Of a stretch of DNA of 64,000 nt, positions 161 through 61,825 are shown piece by piece. The stretch is from an uncultured bacterium (lineage in GTDB: Bacteria > Patescibacteriota > Minisyncoccia > UBA6257 > 2-01-FULL-56-20), in the NCBI GenBank assembly GCA_963707865.1, contig OY970175.1:16748-80747 (forward strand). The letters are read 5' to 3'. A program made the position numbers and the translations under genes. The notes below the pieces were generated by a model. That model was not told the origin of the DNA. It saw only the letters and a list, made by a program, of their open reading frames with translations, and did not search any database. The number at the start of each line of letters is the position of its first letter. Positions within the stretch are counted from its first letter, which is position 1.

Positions 161-634
161 TCAACGAGCAGGTTTCCGTGCGGTTGCTTGCAGTATTCTG
201 TGCCAGTGGTTATGCCCTGTCTCGTCGTCGTAATCGTCAATGATTTCGGTTGCGATCTCGGCGAAGCCACTATTATTTAGGAGATCGTGGATTTTGTGGA
301 TGGTCAAATCCGAGGTGCTCTGTTTGTCGGAGATGTCAAAGGTGCGCAGGAAGAGACATCCGCCCGGCTTCAAGTTGTCGTACGCAGTACGGATCAACTG
401 CGCACGATTTTCGAGTTTGTGCAGGACATAATTGGAATATACGAGGTCAAACGGAGCCGCATCGGATAAAAATGGCTTCTCCAAATCCGTGTCCATTTTT
501 ATGTCAACCCCCACCGCCTTCCATCCGAGCTGTTTAAGATCGTTCGCGTCAACGAGTTCGCCGGCTCCTAGGTCTAACGCCTTACCAGGAACATTAAAGT
601 TCTTCTTTATAAATTTTTCCAAAAACGGATTCAT
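161..634 (-). CDS. class I SAM-dependent methyltransferase
   Basis: 157 aa; glycine-rich motif I LDLGAGEL and acidic motif II GVDI typical of Rossmann-fold methyltransferases. Confidence 0.55.
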   Translation of the reverse strand: MNPFLEKFIKKNFNVPGKALDLGAGELVDANDLKQLGWKAVGVDIKMDTDLEKPFLSDAAPFDLVYSNYVLHKLENRAQLIRTAYDNLKPGGCLFLRTFDISDKQSTSDLTIHKIHDLLNNSGFAEIATEIIDDYDDETGHNHWHRILQATARKPAR

Positions 635-10125: not shown

Positions 10126-10416
10126 GCTGAACCCTTCTTTTGTCTTTGCCGCTCACGCTGCGAACTTGAGAAATCTAGCTCGCTCATATACGAAAATCAG
10201 CCACCCTGGTCGCTGCTCCCGGGTACCCGGCGGAGTTTCTATTCGCTCGCTGATTTCTACCTCATTCTCCGCTACGAGCGGAAAATACAAAAGAAGGGCT
10301 CCATGTTTTTGGTTGGAATCGAGCATGCTTTTAAAAGTTGTTCGGATCCTCTCCCGTGCACTAAATAAAATTCTAGGCTCCGAGATCTTGCGGGATCGGA
10401 GCCTGCGAACGGGGTG

Positions 10417-10629
10417 TCATAGGAAACCCCCGCAAACGCAAAACGCATAGCAGAGAATTGCAATTTGGAATGCAACCCCTGCGAAAGCGAAGATTGCGAG
10501 AACGAGGTATGCCTTCGCCTCGCGTGCGAACCTTTTCTCATATTTCTCAAGGACCGCTACCATGCCCGACGTGGTATCCTGCTCGCCGAGCTTCCTCCAC
10601 AAACCCTGAAAATCAGGTAGGAAGAACAT
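10417..10629 (-). CDS. small hypothetical membrane protein
   Basis: 70 aa with C-terminal hydrophobic helix; no homology recognised; may be spurious. Confidence 0.2.
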   Translation of the reverse strand: MFFLPDFQGLWRKLGEQDTTSGMVAVLEKYEKRFAREAKAYLVLAIFAFAGVAFQIAILCYAFCVCGGFL

Positions 10630-10781
10630 ACGTCACCTCCTCCAAAGAACTTAATTACGACTTAATTGTAGCATATAAATCGATATATTGTCAAGTACAC
10701 GTAAAACAGGCTTGTTTTTGGCTAAAAGCCAAAGTTGTTTGAAGATCGTCCAGGCCTGTGCGTCAAGAATCTTTTAGTAAG

Positions 10782-10809
10782 TTTTTAATGTGTATTGTGG
10801 TAGTATATT
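10782..10809 (+). promoter_or_regulatory. promoter-like box TTTTTAATG-N13-TATATT (cassette promoter family, copy A)
   Basis: AGTTTTTAATGTGTATTGTGGTAGTATATTC ~22 nt upstream of the ATG at 10831; same box upstream of three other accessory units. Confidence 0.45.
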
Positions 10810-10830
10810 CGCACGGAACCGTTAGGCTTA

Positions 10831-35567: not shown

Positions 35568-36761
35568 GTGAACCTGGATTTCTTCCGGTCGCGGGAAAAG
35601 TTTTTGATATTGGAGATCACGCCCAAAGGCACGAACGGACTATTCTTAAGCGTGGACGAGGGCCGGAATATCGTGGTGGAAAAATTTGTGAGGCAGGACA
35701 ATCTCAAAAAATTTCTGAGGACGCCCGCGCGGCGCGTTTCCGAAACAACATGGGAGGGGAAACGCCTCTTCCATTCGCGGCGGCGCGTGGTCGCAGTGGC
35801 GGATGCAGCACTCGCGACTACGATCCCTATCCCCCTTGTGCTTTCCCGCGAACGCGCGAATGCGAAGACGAAAATCACGATCGCGGAACTTGAGAATCTG
35901 ATTGCGCAGGCGATGGCGAAGATTTTCAACGGATGCCGGAGCGAGGCGGCGAAGCGGTTCGGGGTGGACGAATTAGATGCGGTCCTCGTCGGCGCGCATG
36001 CAAAGCATTTCAAGGTGGATCGCAAGGCGCATGCGAGCCCCGTGGGCGGAACAGGGAAGAAAATTTCGCTGCTTTTGGAATTTACCTTTACGACGCGCGC
36101 GATTTTTGGAGACCTCAGGCCGTTCTTCAACTCCCCGGAAGGACTCTTCTTTAGAGAAGCTCCACAGGCGCGCCTCCGCGCGCTCGCGCGCATGCGCCCG
36201 CTGCCGCTCAACGTAATTGCGGCGGACAGCGAAGGCGCCTCGCTCTATGTGTTGGAAAGACCGAAGGGGAACTATGCGGTGCTCTATCGCGAGAGGCTGG
36301 ATTGGTCCTTTTCGTCGCTCATCAAAAAAGTGGTGGAAGCCCTTGCGGTGACGGAAACAGCCGCGCAAGAGCTCTATTGCCGTTATCATCAAAAAGAAAT
36401 GTCGGCACATGCGGCGCGCGCGTTCAAGCCCATCGTGGAATCCCCGCTGCGCGATTTTCTGGAAACGATAGAAAAGAAAAAGATCAAAGGACCGACGTAT
36501 GTGGACATGCCGCATGCACTGCCGTTCGCATTACCCCACAAACACGGCAAGGCGACACTCGCGGAGTATCCCGTAGAAGAGTTGATGGGAAAATTCGGGT
36601 TCAATCTTTCTCTGGCGGTGCGGGAGAAGGTGCGGGGAGAGGGCGAAGGCGAACGTGCCGTCCTCCGGTCACTCTTCTACTTTATAGAAGCTTATATTGA
36701 CGAGGATCGATCTCTCATCAACCAAAAGCTCCGCCGCCGGCTTCATTGGCTTGCGGAGTGA
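35568..36761 (+). CDS. hypothetical protein, possibly actin-like ATPase (PilM/FtsA-like)
   Basis: 397 aa; N-terminal FLILEITPKGTNGLFLSVDEG resembles a sugar-kinase/actin-fold phosphate-1 region; weak. Confidence 0.3.
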   Translation: MNLDFFRSREKFLILEITPKGTNGLFLSVDEGRNIVVEKFVRQDNLKKFLRTPARRVSETTWEGKRLFHSRRRVVAVADAALATTIPIPLVLSRERANAKTKITIAELENLIAQAMAKIFNGCRSEAAKRFGVDELDAVLVGAHAKHFKVDRKAHASPVGGTGKKISLLLEFTFTTRAIFGDLRPFFNSPEGLFFREAPQARLRALARMRPLPLNVIAADSEGASLYVLERPKGNYAVLYRERLDWSFSSLIKKVVEALAVTETAAQELYCRYHQKEMSAHAARAFKPIVESPLRDFLETIEKKKIKGPTYVDMPHALPFALPHKHGKATLAEYPVEELMGKFGFNLSLAVREKVRGEGEGERAVLRSLFYFIEAYIDEDRSLINQKLRRRLHWLAE

Positions 36762-36812: not shown

Positions 36813-38504
36813 ATGAAAAAAATAACCGTTCTTAAAGAGGAAGGTGTTGCGGAGGTCATTGACCGCATTCTTAACGAACCGGACGAAGAGATCGTGCTTG
36901 TCATCACGACCGGATCCGCGCTCGGGCATTCGGTGCGCAATTTTCACCTTTTGAAGCGCGAGGCCTCCGCGGAAGGAAAGACGGTGGTCATAGAATCCGT
37001 GGACGAGACAATTCTCGCCTTTGCGAAAGAAAGCGGTCTTGAAGGAAGCCATCCGCTCTGGCGCGGCGTGCGTGGCGCAGGCGGCGTTTCGGATATTGTT
37101 CCCGTAAGCGAGGAAGCAGAAGAGACGCAACCGCCGAAGAAGCGCGGCAGGAAAAAGACGGAGGGGACAAGGCTCGTCGTGCACGAGGAGCCGCCCGTGG
37201 GCGGGGATGAATCCGATGAGGGCGAGATCGCAGAGGAAGCGGTCGCCATTGAGGAAGCGGAGCACAGGTTTTTCAGAAGAAGAAACCCCGCGGAACTTGC
37301 GGAACGGTCCGGCCGAGAAGAAGGGGAAGAGGAAGAAGCGGAAAAAAGGACCCGCCGCTCGATACCCCGCAAGTTTGTTATTTGGGTTCCGGGCGTGGTT
37401 GTCCTTATACTCATCATTCTTGGCGTGATGACGTGGTATTTCGGGCATGCGACCATCGCCATTGATTTCCAAAAAACGCCGTGGACCTATAGCGGTACTC
37501 TCGTAGCGGATAAGTCCTTTGCGACAACGATGCAGAAAGCGGGCGCGATCACGATTCCGGCGCAGATATTCTCCGCGCAAAAGAACACCACCCAACTTTT
37601 CCCGGCATCCGGCAATGCGAACGTGTCAATCAAGGCGCAGGGAACCATCACGATTTACAACGCCTACAGTTCTTCAAAGCAGGACCTTGTGGCTGCCACG
37701 CGTTTTGTGACGCCGGACGGAAAACTGTTCCGGCTCGCGAGCGGCGTCACCGTGCCGGGCGCGCAGGTGACGAATGGTGCGATTGTACCGTCTTCCATTG
37801 ACGCGCAGGTCGTTGCCGACCAGCCAGGGGCAGATTATAACGTGGGTCCCGTAGATAAATTGACCATCCCCGGTTTCCAAGGTTCTCCCAAGTATAATGC
37901 GTTCTATGGTCAGTTGAAGAACGGAACAAGCGGTGGCTTTGTGGGGGCAAAAGCAGTGCCGACCACAGCGGACGTCGCGAGTGCAAAAACAAAGGTGACG
38001 AGTCTCCTGCAGGCGAATCTTGTGAGCAACATCACGGCGAGTTACCCCAGCAACTTCAAGATTTTGGATGGCGCAACGAACATTAGTGTGACAAAACTCA
38101 CCGCGAACACCTCAACGGACAGCAACGGCAACTTCAGCGTCTTCGGGGAGGCTTCGCTCCAGGCGATCGGTTTCAACGAGGCAGCACTTAAGGCATATCT
38201 CCTTGCACAAGCGCAGGCGCAAGAAGCGAACTCAACCTTCAGTTCGTCCACGCTAGAATACAGTGGAGTAAAGGCGGATTTTACAAAAGGAACAGTAAGC
38301 TTCTCGGTCACGGGCGAGGGGACGCTTGAACCTGTTTTTGATGCGGATGCGTTCAAGGCAAGTATCGCGGGAAAGAGCATCAATGATGCCCGCCAAGCGA
38401 TTGCGGCGCTCCCTGAGCTTGCGGACGGCAAGATTTCCGCGTGGCCCGTATGGCTCTGGAACATCCCTTCCAACCTCAATAAGATCTGGTTAGCCGTAAA
38501 TTGA
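36813..38504 (+). CDS. hypothetical membrane protein (cytoplasmic N-domain, Glu-rich linker, one TM helix, large extracytoplasmic domain)
   Basis: 563 aa; TM helix FVIWVPGVVVLILIILGVMTWYF; no recognised domain. Confidence 0.4.
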   Translation: MKKITVLKEEGVAEVIDRILNEPDEEIVLVITTGSALGHSVRNFHLLKREASAEGKTVVIESVDETILAFAKESGLEGSHPLWRGVRGAGGVSDIVPVSEEAEETQPPKKRGRKKTEGTRLVVHEEPPVGGDESDEGEIAEEAVAIEEAEHRFFRRRNPAELAERSGREEGEEEEAEKRTRRSIPRKFVIWVPGVVVLILIILGVMTWYFGHATIAIDFQKTPWTYSGTLVADKSFATTMQKAGAITIPAQIFSAQKNTTQLFPASGNANVSIKAQGTITIYNAYSSSKQDLVAATRFVTPDGKLFRLASGVTVPGAQVTNGAIVPSSIDAQVVADQPGADYNVGPVDKLTIPGFQGSPKYNAFYGQLKNGTSGGFVGAKAVPTTADVASAKTKVTSLLQANLVSNITASYPSNFKILDGATNISVTKLTANTSTDSNGNFSVFGEASLQAIGFNEAALKAYLLAQAQAQEANSTFSSSTLEYSGVKADFTKGTVSFSVTGEGTLEPVFDADAFKASIAGKSINDARQAIAALPELADGKISAWPVWLWNIPSNLNKIWLAVN

Positions 38505-53450: not shown

Positions 53451-55607
53451 CTACCACCTCTCTACCATGAGCATTTTCCCCGGGCGGAAAATATCGTATA
53501 TCTCTTCCGTGAGGAATGGCATGAACGGATGGAGCATTTTGAGCGACTCCAAGAGCAGGTGTTCAAGGAGCGCGTAGCTTTCCGCTTTTTCTGCCGCGGT
53601 GCCGTCGCGGAGCTTATTTTTTTTGGCCTCCACAATCTTGTCGGCAACCGTATGCCAGACATAATGATAAAGTTTTTCCGCCGCGAGATGGAAATCAAAA
53701 CTTTCAAGGTGTGCCGTCACTTCTTTTTTGAGCGCGGCGAGCTCTTTTACTTCTTCGTGCTTTGCGAGCGCCGGCTCGTCCGCACGCGCGGCGTTCGCGG
53801 TGGCGGTCGTGGCGTCAGCGGCGTCCATTTCCACGGGTTTGTTCATCTGGATAAACCGCGCGATGTTCCAGAGCTTCGTGGAGAAGTTGCGATAGCCGCG
53901 GATACGGTTCTCGCTGAGCGCGAGCGATGTGCCGGGGGTGTTGCCAATAATCAGTCCGATTCGGAAAGCGTCGGTGCCGTACTTTACGGTAAGATCAAGC
54001 GGGTTGATAACGTTATTACGGCTCTTACTCATTTTTTTCCCCTTGGCATCAAGGACAAGACCATGGAGATAGACAGTCTTGAAGGGGACCGTGCCGGTAA
54101 CATAAAGGCCGAACATGATCATGCGCGCGACCCAGAAAAAGATGATTTCCCCGGCAGTTTCCATGACGCTCGTGGGATAAAAAGTTTTGAAATCCTTTGA
54201 ATCGGGATAGCCCAAGCTGGCGTATGGCCACTGGCCTGACGAGAACCATGTGTCAAAGGTATCGGTTTCCTGCCGCACGTCGCTTTTGCAGTCGGGGCAT
54301 TTTATAACGGTATTTTCAATGTCTACGACGCCTTTGCCGCATCGTTCGCAAATCTTCGCGGGGATAGGGATTCCCCATACGATCTGTCGCGAGATGTTCC
54401 AGTCGATGATGTTCTCAAGCCAGTGGAGAGATATCTTTTTATAGTGCTCCGGCAGGAACGTGACGTCACCACGCTCAATAGCTTTGATAGCCGGCGCTGC
54501 AAGCGGCTTCATTTTCACGAACCATTGGTCTTTGATCTGGGGTTCGATGAGCGTTCCGCACTTGTAGCATTTTTTCACCACATGGGCATAATGCTCGTCT
54601 ATCTTTTCAACGAGTCCTTTGGCTTTCAGTTTCTCAATGATTTTCGGCCGTGCGTCCAATATTTTCATGCCGGCAAATTCTCCCGCGATGGGGAGAAGCC
54701 GCCCGTTGAAGTCAATGATCTGTTCCCGGTCCAGCCCGTGCCGTTCGGCGATTTCAAAATCCACGGGATCGTGCCAGGGAGTTATTGTCATGACGCCAGT
54801 CCCAAAGCCCATGTCAATGGCGGTATCCTTGATTATCGTCGCCGTGATGGGGCCATTGATCCACTCCAATTCTATTTTTTGACCATCTTTGTACTTTGTG
54901 TACCGTTTGTCGTCAGGGTGCATGACGACATATTTGTCTCCGAACTTTGTTTCGGGCCGCGCCGTGGCGATCGTGAACGGCCCGTATCTCAGATAATAAA
55001 ATTTGTCGGTTTGCTCCTCATCGCTGGTTTCGAGGTCCGAGAGCGATGTTTGATGCTTGGGGCACCAGTTTACGATTTTTCTCCCGCGATATACCAAACC
55101 GTCATTCGCCAGCTTCTTGAAGGTATGATACACAGTTTTCACGACATCGGGGTCAAGCGTGAATTTTTCGCGCGACCAGTCGCACGATGCTCCCATACTC
55201 CTCGTTTGGTCCTCTATATTTTTCTTGTTGTTGAGCGTGAATTCCGATATCTCTTTATAAAGCTGGTCGTGGTCCATGCCAAAACGGGAACGTCCTTCTT
55301 TCTCCAATTGCCGTTCGTACACAACTTGCGTTTCAAATCCGGCGTGGTCCAATCCCGGCAACCATAAGGTTTTGTGACCGCGCATCCTATGATAACGCGT
55401 CATGATGTCTTCCACGGTGAGCACAAGGCCGTGGCCCGCATGAAGATTGCCGTTCGCGTTCGTTGGCGGCATGATAATCGTGAACGGTTTGGCGTCCGGC
55501 TCAGCCACTCCTTTTTCGACGCAAACGTCGGGATTGAAAAATCCGGATTTTTCCCAGCGCTCGTAAATTCTGGACTCAACTTCTTTTATGTCGTAGCGCG
55601 GTTCCAT
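53451..55607 (-). CDS. valS: valyl-tRNA synthetase (compact, 718 aa)
   Basis: HIGH-type motif PPTNANGNLHAGHG, LWLPGLDHAGFETQ, KMSKS (KMSKSRNN); no long C-terminal coiled coil. Confidence 0.85.
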   Translation of the reverse strand: MEPRYDIKEVESRIYERWEKSGFFNPDVCVEKGVAEPDAKPFTIIMPPTNANGNLHAGHGLVLTVEDIMTRYHRMRGHKTLWLPGLDHAGFETQVVYERQLEKEGRSRFGMDHDQLYKEISEFTLNNKKNIEDQTRSMGASCDWSREKFTLDPDVVKTVYHTFKKLANDGLVYRGRKIVNWCPKHQTSLSDLETSDEEQTDKFYYLRYGPFTIATARPETKFGDKYVVMHPDDKRYTKYKDGQKIELEWINGPITATIIKDTAIDMGFGTGVMTITPWHDPVDFEIAERHGLDREQIIDFNGRLLPIAGEFAGMKILDARPKIIEKLKAKGLVEKIDEHYAHVVKKCYKCGTLIEPQIKDQWFVKMKPLAAPAIKAIERGDVTFLPEHYKKISLHWLENIIDWNISRQIVWGIPIPAKICERCGKGVVDIENTVIKCPDCKSDVRQETDTFDTWFSSGQWPYASLGYPDSKDFKTFYPTSVMETAGEIIFFWVARMIMFGLYVTGTVPFKTVYLHGLVLDAKGKKMSKSRNNVINPLDLTVKYGTDAFRIGLIIGNTPGTSLALSENRIRGYRNFSTKLWNIARFIQMNKPVEMDAADATTATANAARADEPALAKHEEVKELAALKKEVTAHLESFDFHLAAEKLYHYVWHTVADKIVEAKKNKLRDGTAAEKAESYALLEHLLLESLKMLHPFMPFLTEEIYDIFRPGKMLMVERW

Positions 55608-55693: not shown

Positions 55694-56143
55694 CTACGAA
55701 GAATCCGGGCGGCGGATGAGTCTCACGATGGAGATACCGATAGACACTCCCATCGTTACCCCAGACGAAACGTTACCTGTCAGGGCACCGTAGGAGTATG
55801 TCCAAAAGCAAGTAAAGAGGAGGCAGGAATTACAGATGGTGCGTTCCAGTCCCTCCGCTGTGAGGCGTTCCCAAAACAACGCCGCTCCGCCAACCAACAT
55901 GGCCACCCAAGGAGCGACACATTTTGGTTGAATTATCGATCCTATTATAACAGCGAAGAGGGCGACGCTCCCAAGGGCCAAGAGAAATCCAATAATTACG
56001 TCCTCAATGAAGTAAGGTCCCTTTTCGTGCCACCACTGTTTCGGCGATTGTGGGAATAATCGTTTCAGCAGTCGTTTCGCGCGCAGATACCCGATTAACA
56101 AAGAGCGTCGGATGCGCCATCCTATTCTAATCATTTGGTGCAT
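55694..56143 (-). CDS. hypothetical membrane protein
   Basis: 149 aa with 3-4 hydrophobic helices. Confidence 0.3.
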   Translation of the reverse strand: MHQMIRIGWRIRRSLLIGYLRAKRLLKRLFPQSPKQWWHEKGPYFIEDVIIGFLLALGSVALFAVIIGSIIQPKCVAPWVAMLVGGAALFWERLTAEGLERTICNSCLLFTCFWTYSYGALTGNVSSGVTMGVSIGISIVRLIRRPDSS

Positions 56144-56203
56144 TGTGCACCTCCCGCTAATTGTTGTAATGCTCGGTCAGCGTTTTGTCAACCTGCCGCC
56201 GGT

Positions 56204-57319
56204 CTATCGTACCGCTTGGAGATAGGCAATGAGTGAATTCCACGCGTCGTGAACGGCGGGGAAGAGTGCGATTGTGGTGTAAATAAAGAGGATGAGGAGG
56301 ATCAGCGTAAGGAACCCGCTTTCGTGATGGTGATAGTAGTAGCCGTTGCGGGAATAGCAGTGGGCGTTGTGGATGAGATGCCGGAAGGGGAGCGAGACAA
56401 GCCAGAAGAGGGCGATGATAAATACGATGGAAACCCAGAGTGGATGGCCAACGCCTAAAGCATGTCCGAAGACCGTGCCGTGGAAAACGAGCGACCAGAG
56501 CGCGATGACAAAGAGTACGAAGAGTGCAACGCTCACGATCGTTCCGACGAGCGCGCCGAACCAGCCGCACGCGCCGCATCCGCGATGCTCCGCGCGTGCT
56601 TCCTCGCGCCGCATGTCCCGGTCCCTTCGCCGTTCCTTCCGCCACGCGTGCCGCTTCGCGCGCATCTCGTACTTCCACGCGCGCATTTTTTGTTTCCATT
56701 CCTGCTTGCTTTTGCTCGGATCGGGTTGGTATTTTTCGTATTCCACCCGCGCTCGGTCAATGAAATCCTGCGCGGTGAGCGGCGGTTCGCCATGTGCCTG
56801 CGCGATCTCATCTTCCGTGTGCGCGATGGGCATCACGAGCGTGAGGACAATATATGCGACGATCCAACCCCCGCCTGTAAATATAGTGAGCAGCACAAAA
56901 AGCACGCGGACGAGCGTAACGTCAATATTGAAATACGCCGCAAGGCCGGTGCAGACACCCTTCAACATCGATCCTTCAAAGATGCGATAGAGCCGCTTCG
57001 GCGCTGCGGATTTTTTTTGAGCGCCGGATGCAGCTGCACCTGCGTCCGTATCCGCGCCCGCCCGCGCTCCCTCCACGGGCCCCATCTTCGCGATGATCTC
57101 TTCCACCTCTTTTTCCGTGACTACGTTTTTCCCGCCGCGCAAATAGCTGTCGCACTTGTCCGCGATCGCCTGTTCAAAGTCCGCCATGATCTCGTCCTTG
57201 TCCGGATTATCTCTGAGTGTCGTAGCGGCGTGATCCAAATATTTTCGCAAGGCATCGTAGCCCGCTTCCTCCAACTGGTACGCCCTGCCGTTCAGATTGA
57301 TGGTGATAACTTTATTCAT
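56204..57319 (-). CDS. PspC-domain stress-response membrane protein
   Basis: PspC domain RLYRIFEGSMLKGVCTGLAAYFNIDVTLVRVLFVLL; basic cytoplasmic loop; additional TM helices; start trimmed to MNKVITINL. Confidence 0.7.
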   Translation of the reverse strand: MNKVITINLNGRAYQLEEAGYDALRKYLDHAATTLRDNPDKDEIMADFEQAIADKCDSYLRGGKNVVTEKEVEEIIAKMGPVEGARAGADTDAGAAASGAQKKSAAPKRLYRIFEGSMLKGVCTGLAAYFNIDVTLVRVLFVLLTIFTGGGWIVAYIVLTLVMPIAHTEDEIAQAHGEPPLTAQDFIDRARVEYEKYQPDPSKSKQEWKQKMRAWKYEMRAKRHAWRKERRRDRDMRREEARAEHRGCGACGWFGALVGTIVSVALFVLFVIALWSLVFHGTVFGHALGVGHPLWVSIVFIIALFWLVSLPFRHLIHNAHCYSRNGYYYHHHESGFLTLILLILFIYTTIALFPAVHDAWNSLIAYLQAVR

Positions 57320-57678
57320 ATTCTTGTTTTGATTTGTTTTGTTCCGACTTTTTTGATGAATTTGTCCAGGATTTCCCAATATGCTTCCAATTCCTCAAGC
57401 TGCTCCTTGCCTCCGTCCGTGAGGCGATAATATTTCCGCGGCGGGCCTGCGGCGGACTCCACCCATTCATAGTCCACGCTCCCCTCACGCCGGAGCTCGC
57501 TCAAAAGGGGATAGAGCGTGCCCTCCTGCGTTTCAAATTCGGTGTCCACGAGGATCTGCAGAATATCCGCGGCGTAGACCTTGTGCGCCCCGATGATCTT
57601 TAAAACCACGAGCTCAAGAAGGCCCTTCCGTATCGGGGTGAATTTGTCCTTTGCTTTAGGCGCCTTTTCTGTGGGCAT
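57316..57678 (-). CDS. PadR-family transcriptional regulator
   Basis: Winged-helix motif LVVLKIIGAHKVYAADILQ...GTLYPLLSELRREG; stop overlaps the pspC start. Confidence 0.8.
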   Translation of the reverse strand: MPTEKAPKAKDKFTPIRKGLLELVVLKIIGAHKVYAADILQILVDTEFETQEGTLYPLLSELRREGSVDYEWVESAAGPPRKYYRLTDGGKEQLEELEAYWEILDKFIKKVGTKQIKTRI

Positions 57679-57683
57679 AGTCC

Positions 57684-57712
57684 CATTATAGCAAGCTACC
57701 TTGCTGTGTCAA
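57684..57712 (-). promoter_or_regulatory. canonical sigma-70-type promoter (TTGACA-N16-TATAAT) with palindrome AGCAAG-GTAG-CTTGCT in the spacer; -10 ends 6 nt before the padR ATG
   Basis: Minus strand reads TTGACACAGCAAGGTAGCTTGCTATAATGGGACTATG. Confidence 0.55.
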
Positions 57713-57764
57713 GGTACCGCCTGTGGATAACAAAATATGTTATACTCAACCCTACAACTAAACA

Positions 57765-57918
57765 GTTTATCTTGAGCGTGGCGAGGGAACTGGCCCAATG
57801 ACCCACCGACAACCCCCGGCAAGGCGCAATTGCGCGGCGACGAAAGGGTGTCACATCCAGCCCGCAAGGGAAAGATAAAGGTCGCAATGCTTTTCTTTGG
57901 GGAAGGGCATTTTTTATT
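57765..57918 (+). promoter_or_regulatory. SAM-I (S-box) riboswitch with terminator-type expression platform
   Basis: TTATCTTGAGCGTGGCGAGGGAACTGGCCCAATGACCCACCGACAACC ... GAAAGATAAAGG matches the S-box P1/P2/kink-turn/P3 consensus; followed by hairpin and T7 run; upstream of metK. Confidence 0.8.
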
Positions 57919-57999: not shown

Positions 58000-58998
58000 A
58001 TGAGCACAATTATAAAAACCGCGGAGTTCGTTTCGCCGAAGCATCCGGACAAGGCCTGCGACCAGATTGCGGACGCGCTTCTTGACGCTTATCTTGCGGG
58101 CGACAAAGCGGGGGGGCCGCGAAGCCGCGTGGCGGTGGAGGTGATGGGCGGGCACGGACACATCACGATCTCGGGCGAGGTCACGAGCGCGACCGAGGTG
58201 GACATTCCCATGGTGGTGAAGAGAATCGTGGGTCAGGAATACGAAGTTCATCCGTACCTTACGAGGCAAAGCCCGCAGATCGCGCAGGGCGTGGACACGG
58301 GTGGCGCAGGAGACCAGGGGATCATGATGGGCTATGCCACGCGCGAAACGGAAAATTTCATGCCGGTTGAATACGAACTCGCGCGGAAACTGTGCCGCGC
58401 GATCTACGAAAAATATCCGTACGACGGGAAAACGCAGGTGACGGTGGAATGGCCGAGCGGTACGGGGAACGGAACGCCAAAAGTGCGCACGGTCGTCGCA
58501 AGTTTCCAGAACACAAAGAATGCGGAACTCCTCGCGCTTGCACAGAAGGCGATGCAGGAATTCGGGTACGACGCCCAAGAATATCTGATAAATCCGGCAG
58601 GCGAGTGGACGCTTGGGAGCTTTGATGCGGATTCGGGACTCTCCGGCAGGAAGATCGTGATAGACAACTATGGCCCGGAGGTCGGCGTGGGCGGCGGCTC
58701 ATTTTCGGGAAAAGATTACACAAAAGTGGACCGGTCGGGCGCGTACATGACGCGGCGGATCGCAGTGGATTATTTGAAGAACCATCCGGAGGCAAAGACC
58801 GCGCGCGCGAAGCTCGCCTACGCGATCGGGAAAGCGGAACCCGTGATGGCGGTCATAGAAGTGAATGGCGAAGAGTTCCCGATAGAAGGATACGACCTCA
58901 CGCCAAAAGGAATTTTCACGTTTCTGAAATTGAGCGAGGTGAAATGGTTAGAGACGGCCGCGTGGGGCCACTTCGGAAGGGAGTTCAGCTGGGGATAG
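58000..58998 (+). CDS. metK: S-adenosylmethionine synthetase (compact, 332 aa)
   Basis: GHPDK, GAGDQG, GGGSFSGKD, DRSGAY and AWGHFGR motifs. Confidence 0.85.
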   Translation: MSTIIKTAEFVSPKHPDKACDQIADALLDAYLAGDKAGGPRSRVAVEVMGGHGHITISGEVTSATEVDIPMVVKRIVGQEYEVHPYLTRQSPQIAQGVDTGGAGDQGIMMGYATRETENFMPVEYELARKLCRAIYEKYPYDGKTQVTVEWPSGTGNGTPKVRTVVASFQNTKNAELLALAQKAMQEFGYDAQEYLINPAGEWTLGSFDADSGLSGRKIVIDNYGPEVGVGGGSFSGKDYTKVDRSGAYMTRRIAVDYLKNHPEAKTARAKLAYAIGKAEPVMAVIEVNGEEFPIEGYDLTPKGIFTFLKLSEVKWLETAAWGHFGREFSWG

Positions 58999-59019: not shown

Positions 59020-59481
59020 CTAGTTCAGCGTCCAGACGGCGTAGTTTAAATACCCGGCGAAGCTGACCCAGAGGATATAGGGCAGAAGAAGATATGCGGC
59101 CACGGGAGAGATTTTATAGAACGTAAGAATAGTGGCGAGGATCGCGAGCCAGAGAAGAACGATGTCCGCGAATGCGCCCGCGGGGTTGTGCGCGCCGAAA
59201 AATATCGCCGACCACGCCATGTTCAAGAGCAATTGAACGCCGAATATGATGAGCGCGGTCCGGACCTCGGTGCGTTCAAATCCTTTTTGCCACACAAGAA
59301 ACGCCGCGATGCCCATCAAAAGATAAAGCGTTGTCCAGACGGGGCCGAAGATCCAGTTTGGAGGATTCAGAGCGGGCTTTATAAGCCCCGCGTACCAGCC
59401 AGAAATGGCAGGGACGGTAAATATGGAACCCACGGCGCCAGCGAGTTCGCAGATAACGACGGCAACGACGAGCTGGACCAT
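59020..59481 (-). CDS. TspO/MBR tryptophan-rich sensory protein
   Basis: Five TM helices; PPNWIFGPVWTTLYLLMG signature; start trimmed to MVQLVV. Confidence 0.75.
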   Translation of the reverse strand: MVQLVVAVVICELAGAVGSIFTVPAISGWYAGLIKPALNPPNWIFGPVWTTLYLLMGIAAFLVWQKGFERTEVRTALIIFGVQLLLNMAWSAIFFGAHNPAGAFADIVLLWLAILATILTFYKISPVAAYLLLPYILWVSFAGYLNYAVWTLN

Positions 59482-59565
59482 AAGAAAAGTATAACAGGTT
59501 CTAAAATGAAGAGCGCCGTTCCCTGGTGGAACGGCGCCGTCTTGCCGTGTAGACAAGACGAAATA

Positions 59566-60957
59566 TCAGAAAACGTAATTCAGACCGAATCGGGGCGTGA
59601 GGACACCGCCGGAGATATTTGTGTTCAGGCCGAGCCGTAGATGTTTCCACGACCTGTGCCTGAGCCAAACCTCCGGTTCGCCTGCATCGGGACGATGGCC
59701 GCCACGTGCACGGTAATAACCGGCTCCGGACAGAAACATCCCGTGGCCGAGAGGCAACTCCTTGGTTCCCCAAACAATGAGTGTCTCTTGTGGAACGCGC
59801 ACGCCGGCGACTCGGGAAAACTGGCCGACGGTAAGGTTTTTGAATACCTTGCTCAGCAGCCCCCCGATTAGAGGAGCTTCGGTCAGCCGGACTTTTCCTC
59901 CCAATTGCATGAAGGGGTGTTTTGAGGTTCCCCCTTGTTCTGAGGTGAAGGAGAGGAATTGCAGGCGCTTCAAGGGTGCCGTGTAGTTAACTGCATTGTT
60001 CGTGAGAAACGGCACCTTCCCGATTTCCGCGAACCCGGAGCCAGAGATTTTTCCGTACGGCGTCTGGACCGCCTAAGTGTAATTTGGTTCCACCATATCG
60101 CCAGCGAAGCCATTAGGCGTGAACGGCAGAACTTCTACATTTAGGCTGCCAGTGGTCTTGGCTATCTGCGCAGAACTGTCTGTGTTGCGCCTTTTTCCGC
60201 CCGCGCCGGTTTGCGCTTTCGCGATCCCACCCATACTTCCGAAAGAAAGCACGGTTGTGATTACGAATGACGCGAACCGCAGTGCCGCTATCAGTTGTTT
60301 CCGCGGATCGATTTTGGACGGGTATAGGAATATCGAGATTGGCCATCCAATGGTCGCCAACGCCATGCGCCAGGTCTCAATCGGGATTTTCAGCCCTTTC
60401 CCTCGGAGCCGTAGCAGGAAGAAAACGAGCGCCAGCGGTAATGACTGAAAGTACGCTAAGCGGAGTATCGGCCACAGGCTTCCGTAATCCGGACCGTTGT
60501 GCTCTCCGGGTTTCGGATTACCCGCGCCGAAATACGCAAGGCTCGCCTTCTGCATCGCTTCCTCGGGGTAACGCTTGTCGTACTTCTGCTTGAGCTCCTC
60601 GAGGTGACTGCTTCGGAGAGCGCTTGTTCGAATTCTCAAGATCACTACCATTCTCGGGTCTTTCTCTCGCTCCCTGCGATCTTCGTACTTTTGGAGTAAA
60701 AGCTCCGCACGTCTCGCGCGTCCCTGGAGTTTGAAATATTCCTGGGGATCGTCACTCGCAGGTTTTTGGAACTCCCCCTTTAGCGAATCGAGCTCGCTCA
60801 TGATCTCCTCGGCTTTCAGAGATGGTATGTCCTTCAGGGTCAGCCATTCCGACACAGTGTCGAGCCGGCTGATTTCCAAAACCACCGGAAGGACGACCAG
60901 AGCGAACAGAACAACAACAGCGAAGTAGAACCACCCCCACTTAATCTCCAATCGCAT
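59566..60957 (-). pseudogene. membrane/secreted protein gene interrupted by a single in-frame TAG (ORFs 60073-60957 and 59566-60015 share one reading frame)
   Basis: Codon 60075-60073 is TAG in the same frame as both ORFs; read through, the product would be ~463 aa (TM helix, coiled coil, TM helices, Gly-rich beta region ending ...GLNYVF). Confidence 0.45.
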
Positions 60958-61099
60958 GCTATCCCCCTATCCTTCTTTTTTTGTGATTTAACAAGCCTAG
61001 TAAAGCAAGTTAAAGGCCGACCATATTTTAGTATATTTATTAATTAATGTCAATCAGTTCGTCGTAATATCTTCATTGGGCGGGTGTATACTGAACCTA

Positions 61100-61825
61100 A
61101 TGTCTCGCAAATCCGGGCGCAAAAAGAAGCTCGCTATTTTTGACATTGACGGGACGATCTTCCGGTCCAGCCTGCTCATTGAACTTGTGGACGCGCTGAT
61201 CCACGAGGGGATCTTCAAGCCGAGCGCGATGCGGATCTACGAGCGGGATAAACGCGCATGGCTTGACCGGAAGGGGGACTACGACGCCTATATTAAAAGT
61301 GTCGTGAGGGCGTTCCTCAAAAATATCAAAGGCGTGCCGTATGTCCGCTTCGCGCGCGTGGCAAAAAAGGTGGTCGCGCTCCACAAGAACCGCGTGTACC
61401 GTTATACGCGCGATCTCGTTCACGCTTTGCGGCGCAAGGGATATTGGCTCGTCGCAATTTCGCACTCGCCGCGCGGGATCGTGGGGCCGTTCGCCGCACA
61501 GATGGGATTTCATAAAGTGTACGGGTTGCTGTACGAGCTTAGCCCCACGGGGCGGTTCAACGGGAAGGTGATGTTTGAGGATCTTATTTTTGACAAGGCG
61601 AAGATCGTGGCACGCGTGCTTGCAAAAGAAGATGTCACGCTTCGCGGGTCCGTGGGCGTGGGGGATACGGAGGGCGACATTCCTTTTTTAAAGCTCGTCA
61701 CCCGGGCGATCTGCTTCAATCCGAACGGGAAGCTCTACCGCGCGGCGCGCCGCCGCGGCTGGGAGGTCATCGTGGAGCGGAAGGATGTGGTGTACCGGAT
61801 TCAACAATCTTATGGAAAAGCTTGA
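61100..61825 (+). CDS. HAD-superfamily hydrolase (HAD-IB, phosphoserine-phosphatase-like)
   Basis: Motif I LAIFDIDGTI, motif II and motif III (GDTEGDIPFL). Confidence 0.65.
   Translation: MSRKSGRKKKLAIFDIDGTIFRSSLLIELVDALIHEGIFKPSAMRIYERDKRAWLDRKGDYDAYIKSVVRAFLKNIKGVPYVRFARVAKKVVALHKNRVYRYTRDLVHALRRKGYWLVAISHSPRGIVGPFAAQMGFHKVYGLLYELSPTGRFNGKVMFEDLIFDKAKIVARVLAKEDVTLRGSVGVGDTEGDIPFLKLVTRAICFNPNGKLYRAARRRGWEVIVERKDVVYRIQQSYGKA

Follow-up and report, generated by a model that had tools for sequence, protein, structure and literature searches.

In-frame TAG codons within a conserved coding frame are found in programmed amber decoding (pyrrolysine, suppressor tRNAs and TAG-reassigned codes), and also in nonsense null alleles of surface and envelope genes, such as receptor-loss alleles, in which one transition has made a stop of a conserved sense codon and the rest of the gene is intact. 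Among envelope proteins themselves, those of the OmpM/SlpA type consist of an N-terminal anchoring domain, a helical stalk and a C-terminal β-barrel, while the intimin/invasin β-domain (4e1s, 4e1t), the KdgM/NanC porins (4fqe, 2wjq) and PcoB (7pge) are solved outer-membrane barrels of 12 antiparallel strands with a C-terminal aromatic residue. To our knowledge, Patescibacteria are generally regarded as having no outer membrane; Minisyncoccia is a class of Minisyncoccota, that is, of the Patescibacteria/CPR.

Here we describe a gene, found in a 64-kb stretch of Minisyncoccia DNA (the window), that invites comparison with all of these systems. MetK and RpoA of the window share 90%-identity clusters with NCBI proteins labelled ‘Minisyncoccia bacterium’, and the contig from which the window is taken measures 898,885 bp. 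The question originally posed was whether a lone amber codon in this gene might be a recoding signal. The answer is negative, as the amber codon gives no evidence of recoding. We lean slightly towards the view that the TAG is a genuine and very recent nonsense allele of one ancestral 463-codon gene, located in a dispensable, swappable slot for envelope proteins, and we treat an error of the consensus sequence as its close rival.

Layout and conservation of the interrupted gene

On the minus strand, an open reading frame of 294 codons (60957-60073) ends in TAG and is followed in the same frame by a further 168 codons (60072-59566), which contain no other stop and no frameshift. Counting the TAG itself (294 + 1 + 168), the split gene comes to 463 codons in a single frame of which the TAG is the only interruption (Table 1). 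Nineteen sense codons, AVQTPYGKISGSGFAEIGK, lie between the TAG and a GTG at 60015-60013, beyond which the frame continues to its TGA. After the TAG, the source annotation calls just the last 114 codons, as a protein of their own (P0006). The initial annotation had pointed to two same-frame ORFs parted by a lone TAG and 19 sense codons, and its coordinates proved exact when the ORFs were checked.

Table 1. Features of the interrupted gene and its surroundings (positions in the window; codons of the 463-codon frame)
Feature	Position	Strand	Remarks
Variable segment with gene, promoter and terminator	59455..61123		No homology to the third relative (L006/L007), which aligns up to 59454 and again from 61124
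Sigma-70-like promoter, TTGACA, 17 nt, TAAAAT (11/12 matches)	61025..61053	-	Upstream of ATG 60957
Codons 1-294	60076..60957	-	Separate 294-aa protein (P0001) in the source annotation
N-terminal helical membrane domain, codons ~1-243	60229-60957	-	
Disordered Gly/Lys-rich linker, codons ~244-267		-	Starts at the conserved AKA|Q motif
Predicted β-barrel domain, codons ~268-463	59569..60156	-	Mapped from the model of the orthologue P0002 (strands 265-459)
In-frame TAG, codon 295	60073..60075	-	TGG (Trp) in the orthologues L001 and L002
Codons 296-463, remainder of the predicted 12-stranded β-barrel	59569..60072	-	Intact frame, end ...RFGLNYVF
TGA, true stop of the putative ancestral 463-codon gene	59566..59568	-	Same end position in both orthologues
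Intrinsic-terminator-like hairpin, 11-pair stem (8 G-C pairs), then T-rich tail	59512..59538	-	Just after the TGA

The sigma-70-like promoter is the only promoter-like site between 59300 and 61200. From there to the terminator-like hairpin behind the TGA no strong terminator was seen; the scan lists just two weak 5-pair hairpins in between, a number not above chance. The whole unit is enclosed by a single promoter and a single terminator and, judged by these signals, is one transcription unit.

When the fused sequence was used as the query of a word-indexed search of 5.8 billion proteins, the search returned, besides the window's own 294-aa product, a protein of 460 aa (P0002) that is 59% identical to the query over 100% of its length, with the junction unbroken. 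The DNA of this orthologue (L001) has TGG at the site of the TAG. A scan of the GTDB species representatives yielded a sister genome (L002; OY970382.1, isolate MFD03726.bin.c.5, chromosome of 887,956 bp) and no other relative. Its orthologue shares 88% nucleotide identity with the window gene and likewise carries TGG at the site. Two scans of JGI metagenome contigs, with N-terminal and then with C-terminal patterns, gave no further relatives or copies of the site. Both orthologues align end to end across the junction, in agreement with the proposal that an amber codon splits a gene of about 463 aa. An alignment of orthologues had been suggested as the check, with a sense codon at the site as one outcome and termination at the same position as the other; the two orthologues show the former.

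Conservation extends to the wider family. An exhaustive profile search recovered 146 cluster representatives at E ≤ 0.001, and many of the family proteins, at 440-500 aa, span both halves of the split gene. When 27 members were aligned, 18 of the 26 other than the window gene proved to have Trp, within the motif SPEYxW, in the column of the TAG. Since Trp is conserved in this column and both orthologues have TGG, the TAG is a one-base change of a Trp codon and not a gene boundary. One G of the coding strand has become A, a single transition (at 60074 of the plus strand, T stands where C is expected), and what is seen here is what characterizes a nonsense allele: uninterrupted orthologues with a sense codon, a stop one substitution away from it, and a conserved residue at the site. 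From the alignments, the two annotated calls of 294 and 114 aa are one disrupted gene, and annotation pipelines should merge them as such.

The encoded protein and its family

Scans with Pfam and NCBIfam of both halves of the gene, of P0002, of a stand-alone barrel and of P0004 gave nothing above noise, and the family profile had no match among PDB sequences. The protein was modelled with AlphaFold2 using P0002 as the target and a 50-sequence family alignment. The model has a mean pLDDT of 90, with helices at residues 7-240, disorder at 240-261 and twelve β-strands at 265-459. We read the hydrophobic helices 7-41, 158-186, 191-211 and 218-240 as transmembrane segments and the helices between them as a probable helical bundle. 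The tryptophan replaced by the TAG corresponds to W292 of P0002, within the second strand (285-296); the first 294 codons of the window gene accordingly hold, besides the membrane domain and linker, β-strand 1 and half of β-strand 2 of the barrel. The model agrees with the original description of the protein as N-terminal helices followed by a β-like C-terminus with a terminal aromatic residue, which is Phe.

Searched against the PDB with Foldseek, the model matched only outer-membrane barrels (intimin/invasin β-domains, OmpG, KdgM, NanC, PcoB, FapF and porins), with a probability of ~1.0 and, for the 12-stranded hits, target-normalised TM-scores of 0.47-0.60. The C-terminal domain is thus confidently predicted to be a 12-stranded β-barrel of the outer-membrane type. 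Neither BamA nor any LPS gene turned up when 20 ORFs of the window, located from 35.5 to 63.7 kb, were scanned with Pfam.

In about 25 members of the family the barrel stands alone, in a protein of 215-235 aa that has a classical signal peptide. The AxA|Q cleavage motif of these proteins aligns with ‘AKAQ’, a conserved motif found behind the last hydrophobic helix of the fused form and located in the window at codons ~240-250 (60208-60240). This alignment suggests that AKAQ is an internal signal-peptidase site in the fused proteins, in which case export would be directed from within the chain by the last helix, and signal peptidase might set the barrel free. The single family member with a named source comes from a ‘Patescibacteria group bacterium’, and the other members lie among housekeeping genes on gene-dense small contigs. 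The stand-alone barrel genes P0029 and P0039 adjoin divergent genes for TrmB-family regulators on three independent contigs (L004:920-2630, L005:507-2217 and L009:6279-8714).

Resting on structure prediction, we regard this as an undescribed family that would join a helical membrane domain to an outer-membrane-like β-barrel; the fold class is known, the fusion is unusual and the lineage is unexpected. The existence of such a family (146 cluster representatives and no annotation) in a lineage considered monoderm bears on how these episymbionts build their envelope and make contact with their hosts.

Variation of the locus among relatives

The orthologue in the sister genome has a premature stop of its own. 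A CGA has become TGA at L002:7363-7365, eight codons before the end of the gene, which removes the conserved last β-strand, RFGLNYVF. A third Minisyncoccia relative, represented by JGI and Logan contigs (L006/L007) and placed in the same Minisyncoccia clusters as the window, retains synteny with the window on both sides of the locus (PrsW-ValRS-PspC-PadR-MetK-TspO ... HAD-XseA). In place of the split gene it holds, on the opposite strand (L006:8430-9955), an unrelated gene for a 412-aa protein (P0160) that shows no homology to the family (hhalign probability 0.08). By eye, the design of this protein is like that of the split gene, with hydrophobic helices, then ‘AALAQ’, then a β-rich C-terminus, and its only homologue is a stand-alone protein of 249 aa whose signal peptide aligns with the AALAQ motif. 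Its AlphaFold2 model has a pLDDT of 35, too low to interpret. The comparison shows a locus that varies between close relatives and is, by its sequence, dispensable or exchangeable; the slot at 59455-61123 looks like a swappable cassette for envelope proteins.

Several neighbouring regions also differ among the three genomes or deserve mention. The window shares with L006 a stretch (55694-57719) that comprises a 149-aa ORF and the genes for PadR and a PspC-domain protein; in L002, 466 bp replace these ~2 kb. The valyl-tRNA synthetase (ValRS) gene at 53451-55607 on the minus strand encodes 718 aa in the window, compared with 853-861 aa in L002 and L006, and is without an insertion of ~120-140 aa near the zinc-binding region. 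It is a mosaic, near-identical over the C-terminal ~170 aa and in a central block but only ~50% identical in the N-terminal third, a pattern that suggests recombination within the gene. An assembly defect was considered for the short ValRS and rejected, as the difference is an in-frame mosaic/indel difference and not a disruption. Further along the window, a SAM-I riboswitch (RF00162, 53.5 bits; 57764-57881, plus strand) lies directly upstream of a gene for a short (332-aa) S-adenosylmethionine synthetase (58000-58998). Elsewhere, ~700 bp at 10126-10830 lack a convincing ORF and gave no match to Rfam even at E ≤ 0.1; they could be an undescribed RNA or a decayed gene.

Origin of the amber codon and relation to known systems

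Selection on the gene bears on the age of the lesion. Between the window and the sister genome, the whole gene has a dS of 0.43 and an ω of 0.14 (Nei-Gojobori), with ω at 0.17 upstream of the TAG and 0.10 downstream, as compared with 0.11 for TspO, 0.08 for MetK, 0.16 for HAD and 0.18 for XseA among its intact neighbours. With P0002 as outgroup, the derived amino acid changes downstream of the TAG number four in the window and five in L002, with five ambiguous. The relaxed selection or additional lesions expected downstream of the stop in an old pseudogene were not seen, as ω is 0.10 there and the changes are balanced. Since the 168 codons after the TAG have been under normal purifying selection for nearly the whole divergence of the two genomes, the stop must be either very recent or absent from the organism.

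Three explanations had been offered for the TAG at the outset, namely recent pseudogenisation, a sequencing error, and readthrough or recoding; the first two stay candidates and the third is not supported. In a regulated pair of products, made by programmed or leaky readthrough, a truncated membrane domain would be accompanied by the full-length barrel protein, and the intact and constrained downstream frame would fit such a scheme, as might a relative with a premature stop in the same gene if this were taken for a tolerated feature. However, the relative's stop is another codon at another site, and the TAG is conserved in neither orthologue, both of which have the TGG of the family's Trp. TAG is also a frequent and genuine stop in the window. 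Among the 45 non-overlapping ORFs of at least 150 aa, 16 end in TAA, 16 in TAG and 13 in TGA, and the TAG codons of ValRS and TspO stand exactly at the C-terminus that these proteins have in common with their orthologues, which upholds the early remark that a global change of the code is unlikely. ARAGORN found no tRNA-CUA in the 64 kb, only tRNA-Gly(CCC) and tRNA-Pro(GGG), and the 101 nt from the TAG onward fold no better than shuffled sequences (z = 0.31). We consider recoding very improbable; what interrupts the gene is an ordinary nonsense lesion, or else a miscalled base, and not a recoding signal. Even less probable, in our estimate, is a natural fission into two genuine genes, one for the membrane protein and one for a separate β-domain protein starting from the GTG at 60015 or an ATG at 59910. 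The two calls of the deposited annotation would fit such a fission, as would the stand-alone barrels (~215-235 aa) that the family includes; yet these natural barrels begin ~30 residues before the position of the TAG (profile position ~265-270) and carry their own signal peptide ending in AxA|Q, whereas the downstream ORF of the window has no signal peptide and lacks the first two or more β-strands. The break interrupts a β-strand where a conserved Trp belongs, the 19 codons that lead from the TAG to the GTG are themselves homologous coding sequence, and there is no internal promoter. No other genome was found to share the split. A superficially similar pair of ORFs in the window, 35568-36761 and 36813-38504 on the plus strand (397 and 563 aa, without Pfam hits), is also in one frame with one TGA and 17 codons between its members. 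It was considered as a second case of readthrough or error and rejected, the spacer being an AT-rich, promoter-like intergenic region (TGgTATACT); most likely these are two genes and not another split.

The choice between a real allele and a miscalled base is the harder one. If the coding-strand A is a long-read consensus error, arising for example from methylation-induced confusion of purines, the organism would have TGG and an intact 463-codon gene, and the TGA of the sister genome would have arisen as the same kind of artefact. We give this reading serious though less than even credence. The downstream frame is intact, with an ω of 0.10 and no excess of derived changes, just as if there had been no mutation. 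The sister genome is a long-read circular MAG of the Microflora Danica (MFD) catalogue, which was built from Nanopore reads only, with Flye as the assembler and a single round of Medaka polishing (PMC12313526), and the genome of the window is probably Nanopore-only as well. [quoted passage not shown] Both premature stops belong to this class of substitution. Each is a G-to-A change of the 5'-most base in a run of Gs (window, CTT[G>A]GGCGG; L002, opposite strand, ATC[G>A]GGG), a pattern that may indicate a systematic miscall. The local sequence, however, is off the RA/TY motif, since the R is here followed by G, and for this lack of fit we rejected a methylation-type motif common to the two nonsense sites, even though both lie at a G run. 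For two genomes to acquire stop-creating errors independently in one and the same 1.4-kb gene would be a coincidence of low probability, whereas the five neighbouring genes that were compared are intact in both the window and L002 and the locus is demonstrably dispensable in the third relative. A second independent stop in the same gene is unlikely under random base-calling error and is to be expected in a dispensable gene, as this one appears to be from the TGA of L002 and from the replacement of the whole segment in the third relative; this supports a real allele. We infer that the base at 60074 is real rather than miscalled.

For a real nonsense allele, the following course of events can be envisaged. 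The Trp295 codon would have changed from TGG to TAG by a recent single transition in a 463-codon gene, whose ancestral product would have comprised a polytopic helical membrane domain, a linker with the signal-peptidase-like AKA|Q and the C-terminal 12-stranded β-barrel. Termination at the TAG would leave a 294-residue product with the membrane domain, the linker and ~1.5 β-strands (~30 barrel residues), and the barrel could not form because the remaining 168 codons would have neither an export signal nor a convincing translation start of their own. The locus would then be a dispensable slot of the Minisyncoccia genome, subject to recurrent null alleles and to gene replacement, and pressure on a surface protein, exerted for instance by phages or through interaction with the host, may be the cause of the recurrent loss. 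A broader claim would be that the premature stops are real and recurrent, and that a widespread, undescribed barrel family of the Patescibacteria, stand-alone or fused via AKA|Q, occupies a swappable locus that is switched off by nonsense mutation or exchange. We think this unlikely in its full extent. If true, the family would be a contingency-type protein of the cell surface or of host contact (or a phage receptor) in a lineage believed to lack an outer membrane. Real or artefactual, the TAG provides a checkable example of the single-base stops that MAGs built from long reads only can carry.

In its relation to known systems, the site shares with programmed amber decoding an in-frame TAG within a conserved coding frame, but it differs in that the TAG is unconserved, replaces a Trp, is a common terminator in the window, and is accompanied by neither a tRNA-CUA in the 64 kb nor a stimulatory structure downstream. 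The likeness to nonsense null alleles of envelope genes is closer, extending from the single transition in an otherwise intact gene to the uninterrupted orthologues, the variable locus and the independent premature stop of a second relative; unlike an old pseudogene, the gene has no sign of decay, and the putative variant base comes from a metagenome consensus. The protein resembles those of the OmpM/SlpA type in architecture, the level at which they were compared, in having an N-terminal anchoring or helical part before a C-terminal barrel. No homology was detected, and it differs from them in having no SLH domain, in an N-terminal part that is itself predicted to be membrane-embedded, and in the signal-peptidase-like motif that parts this domain from the barrel. 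With the solved β-domain of intimin/invasin, the KdgM/NanC porins and PcoB, the predicted barrel shares its 12 antiparallel strands and C-terminal aromatic residue (OmpG, also among the matches, is 14-stranded), but sequence identity to the solved barrels is only 10-13%, searches of Pfam, NCBIfam and PDB sequences gave no match, and here a polytopic helical membrane domain precedes the barrel in the same chain.
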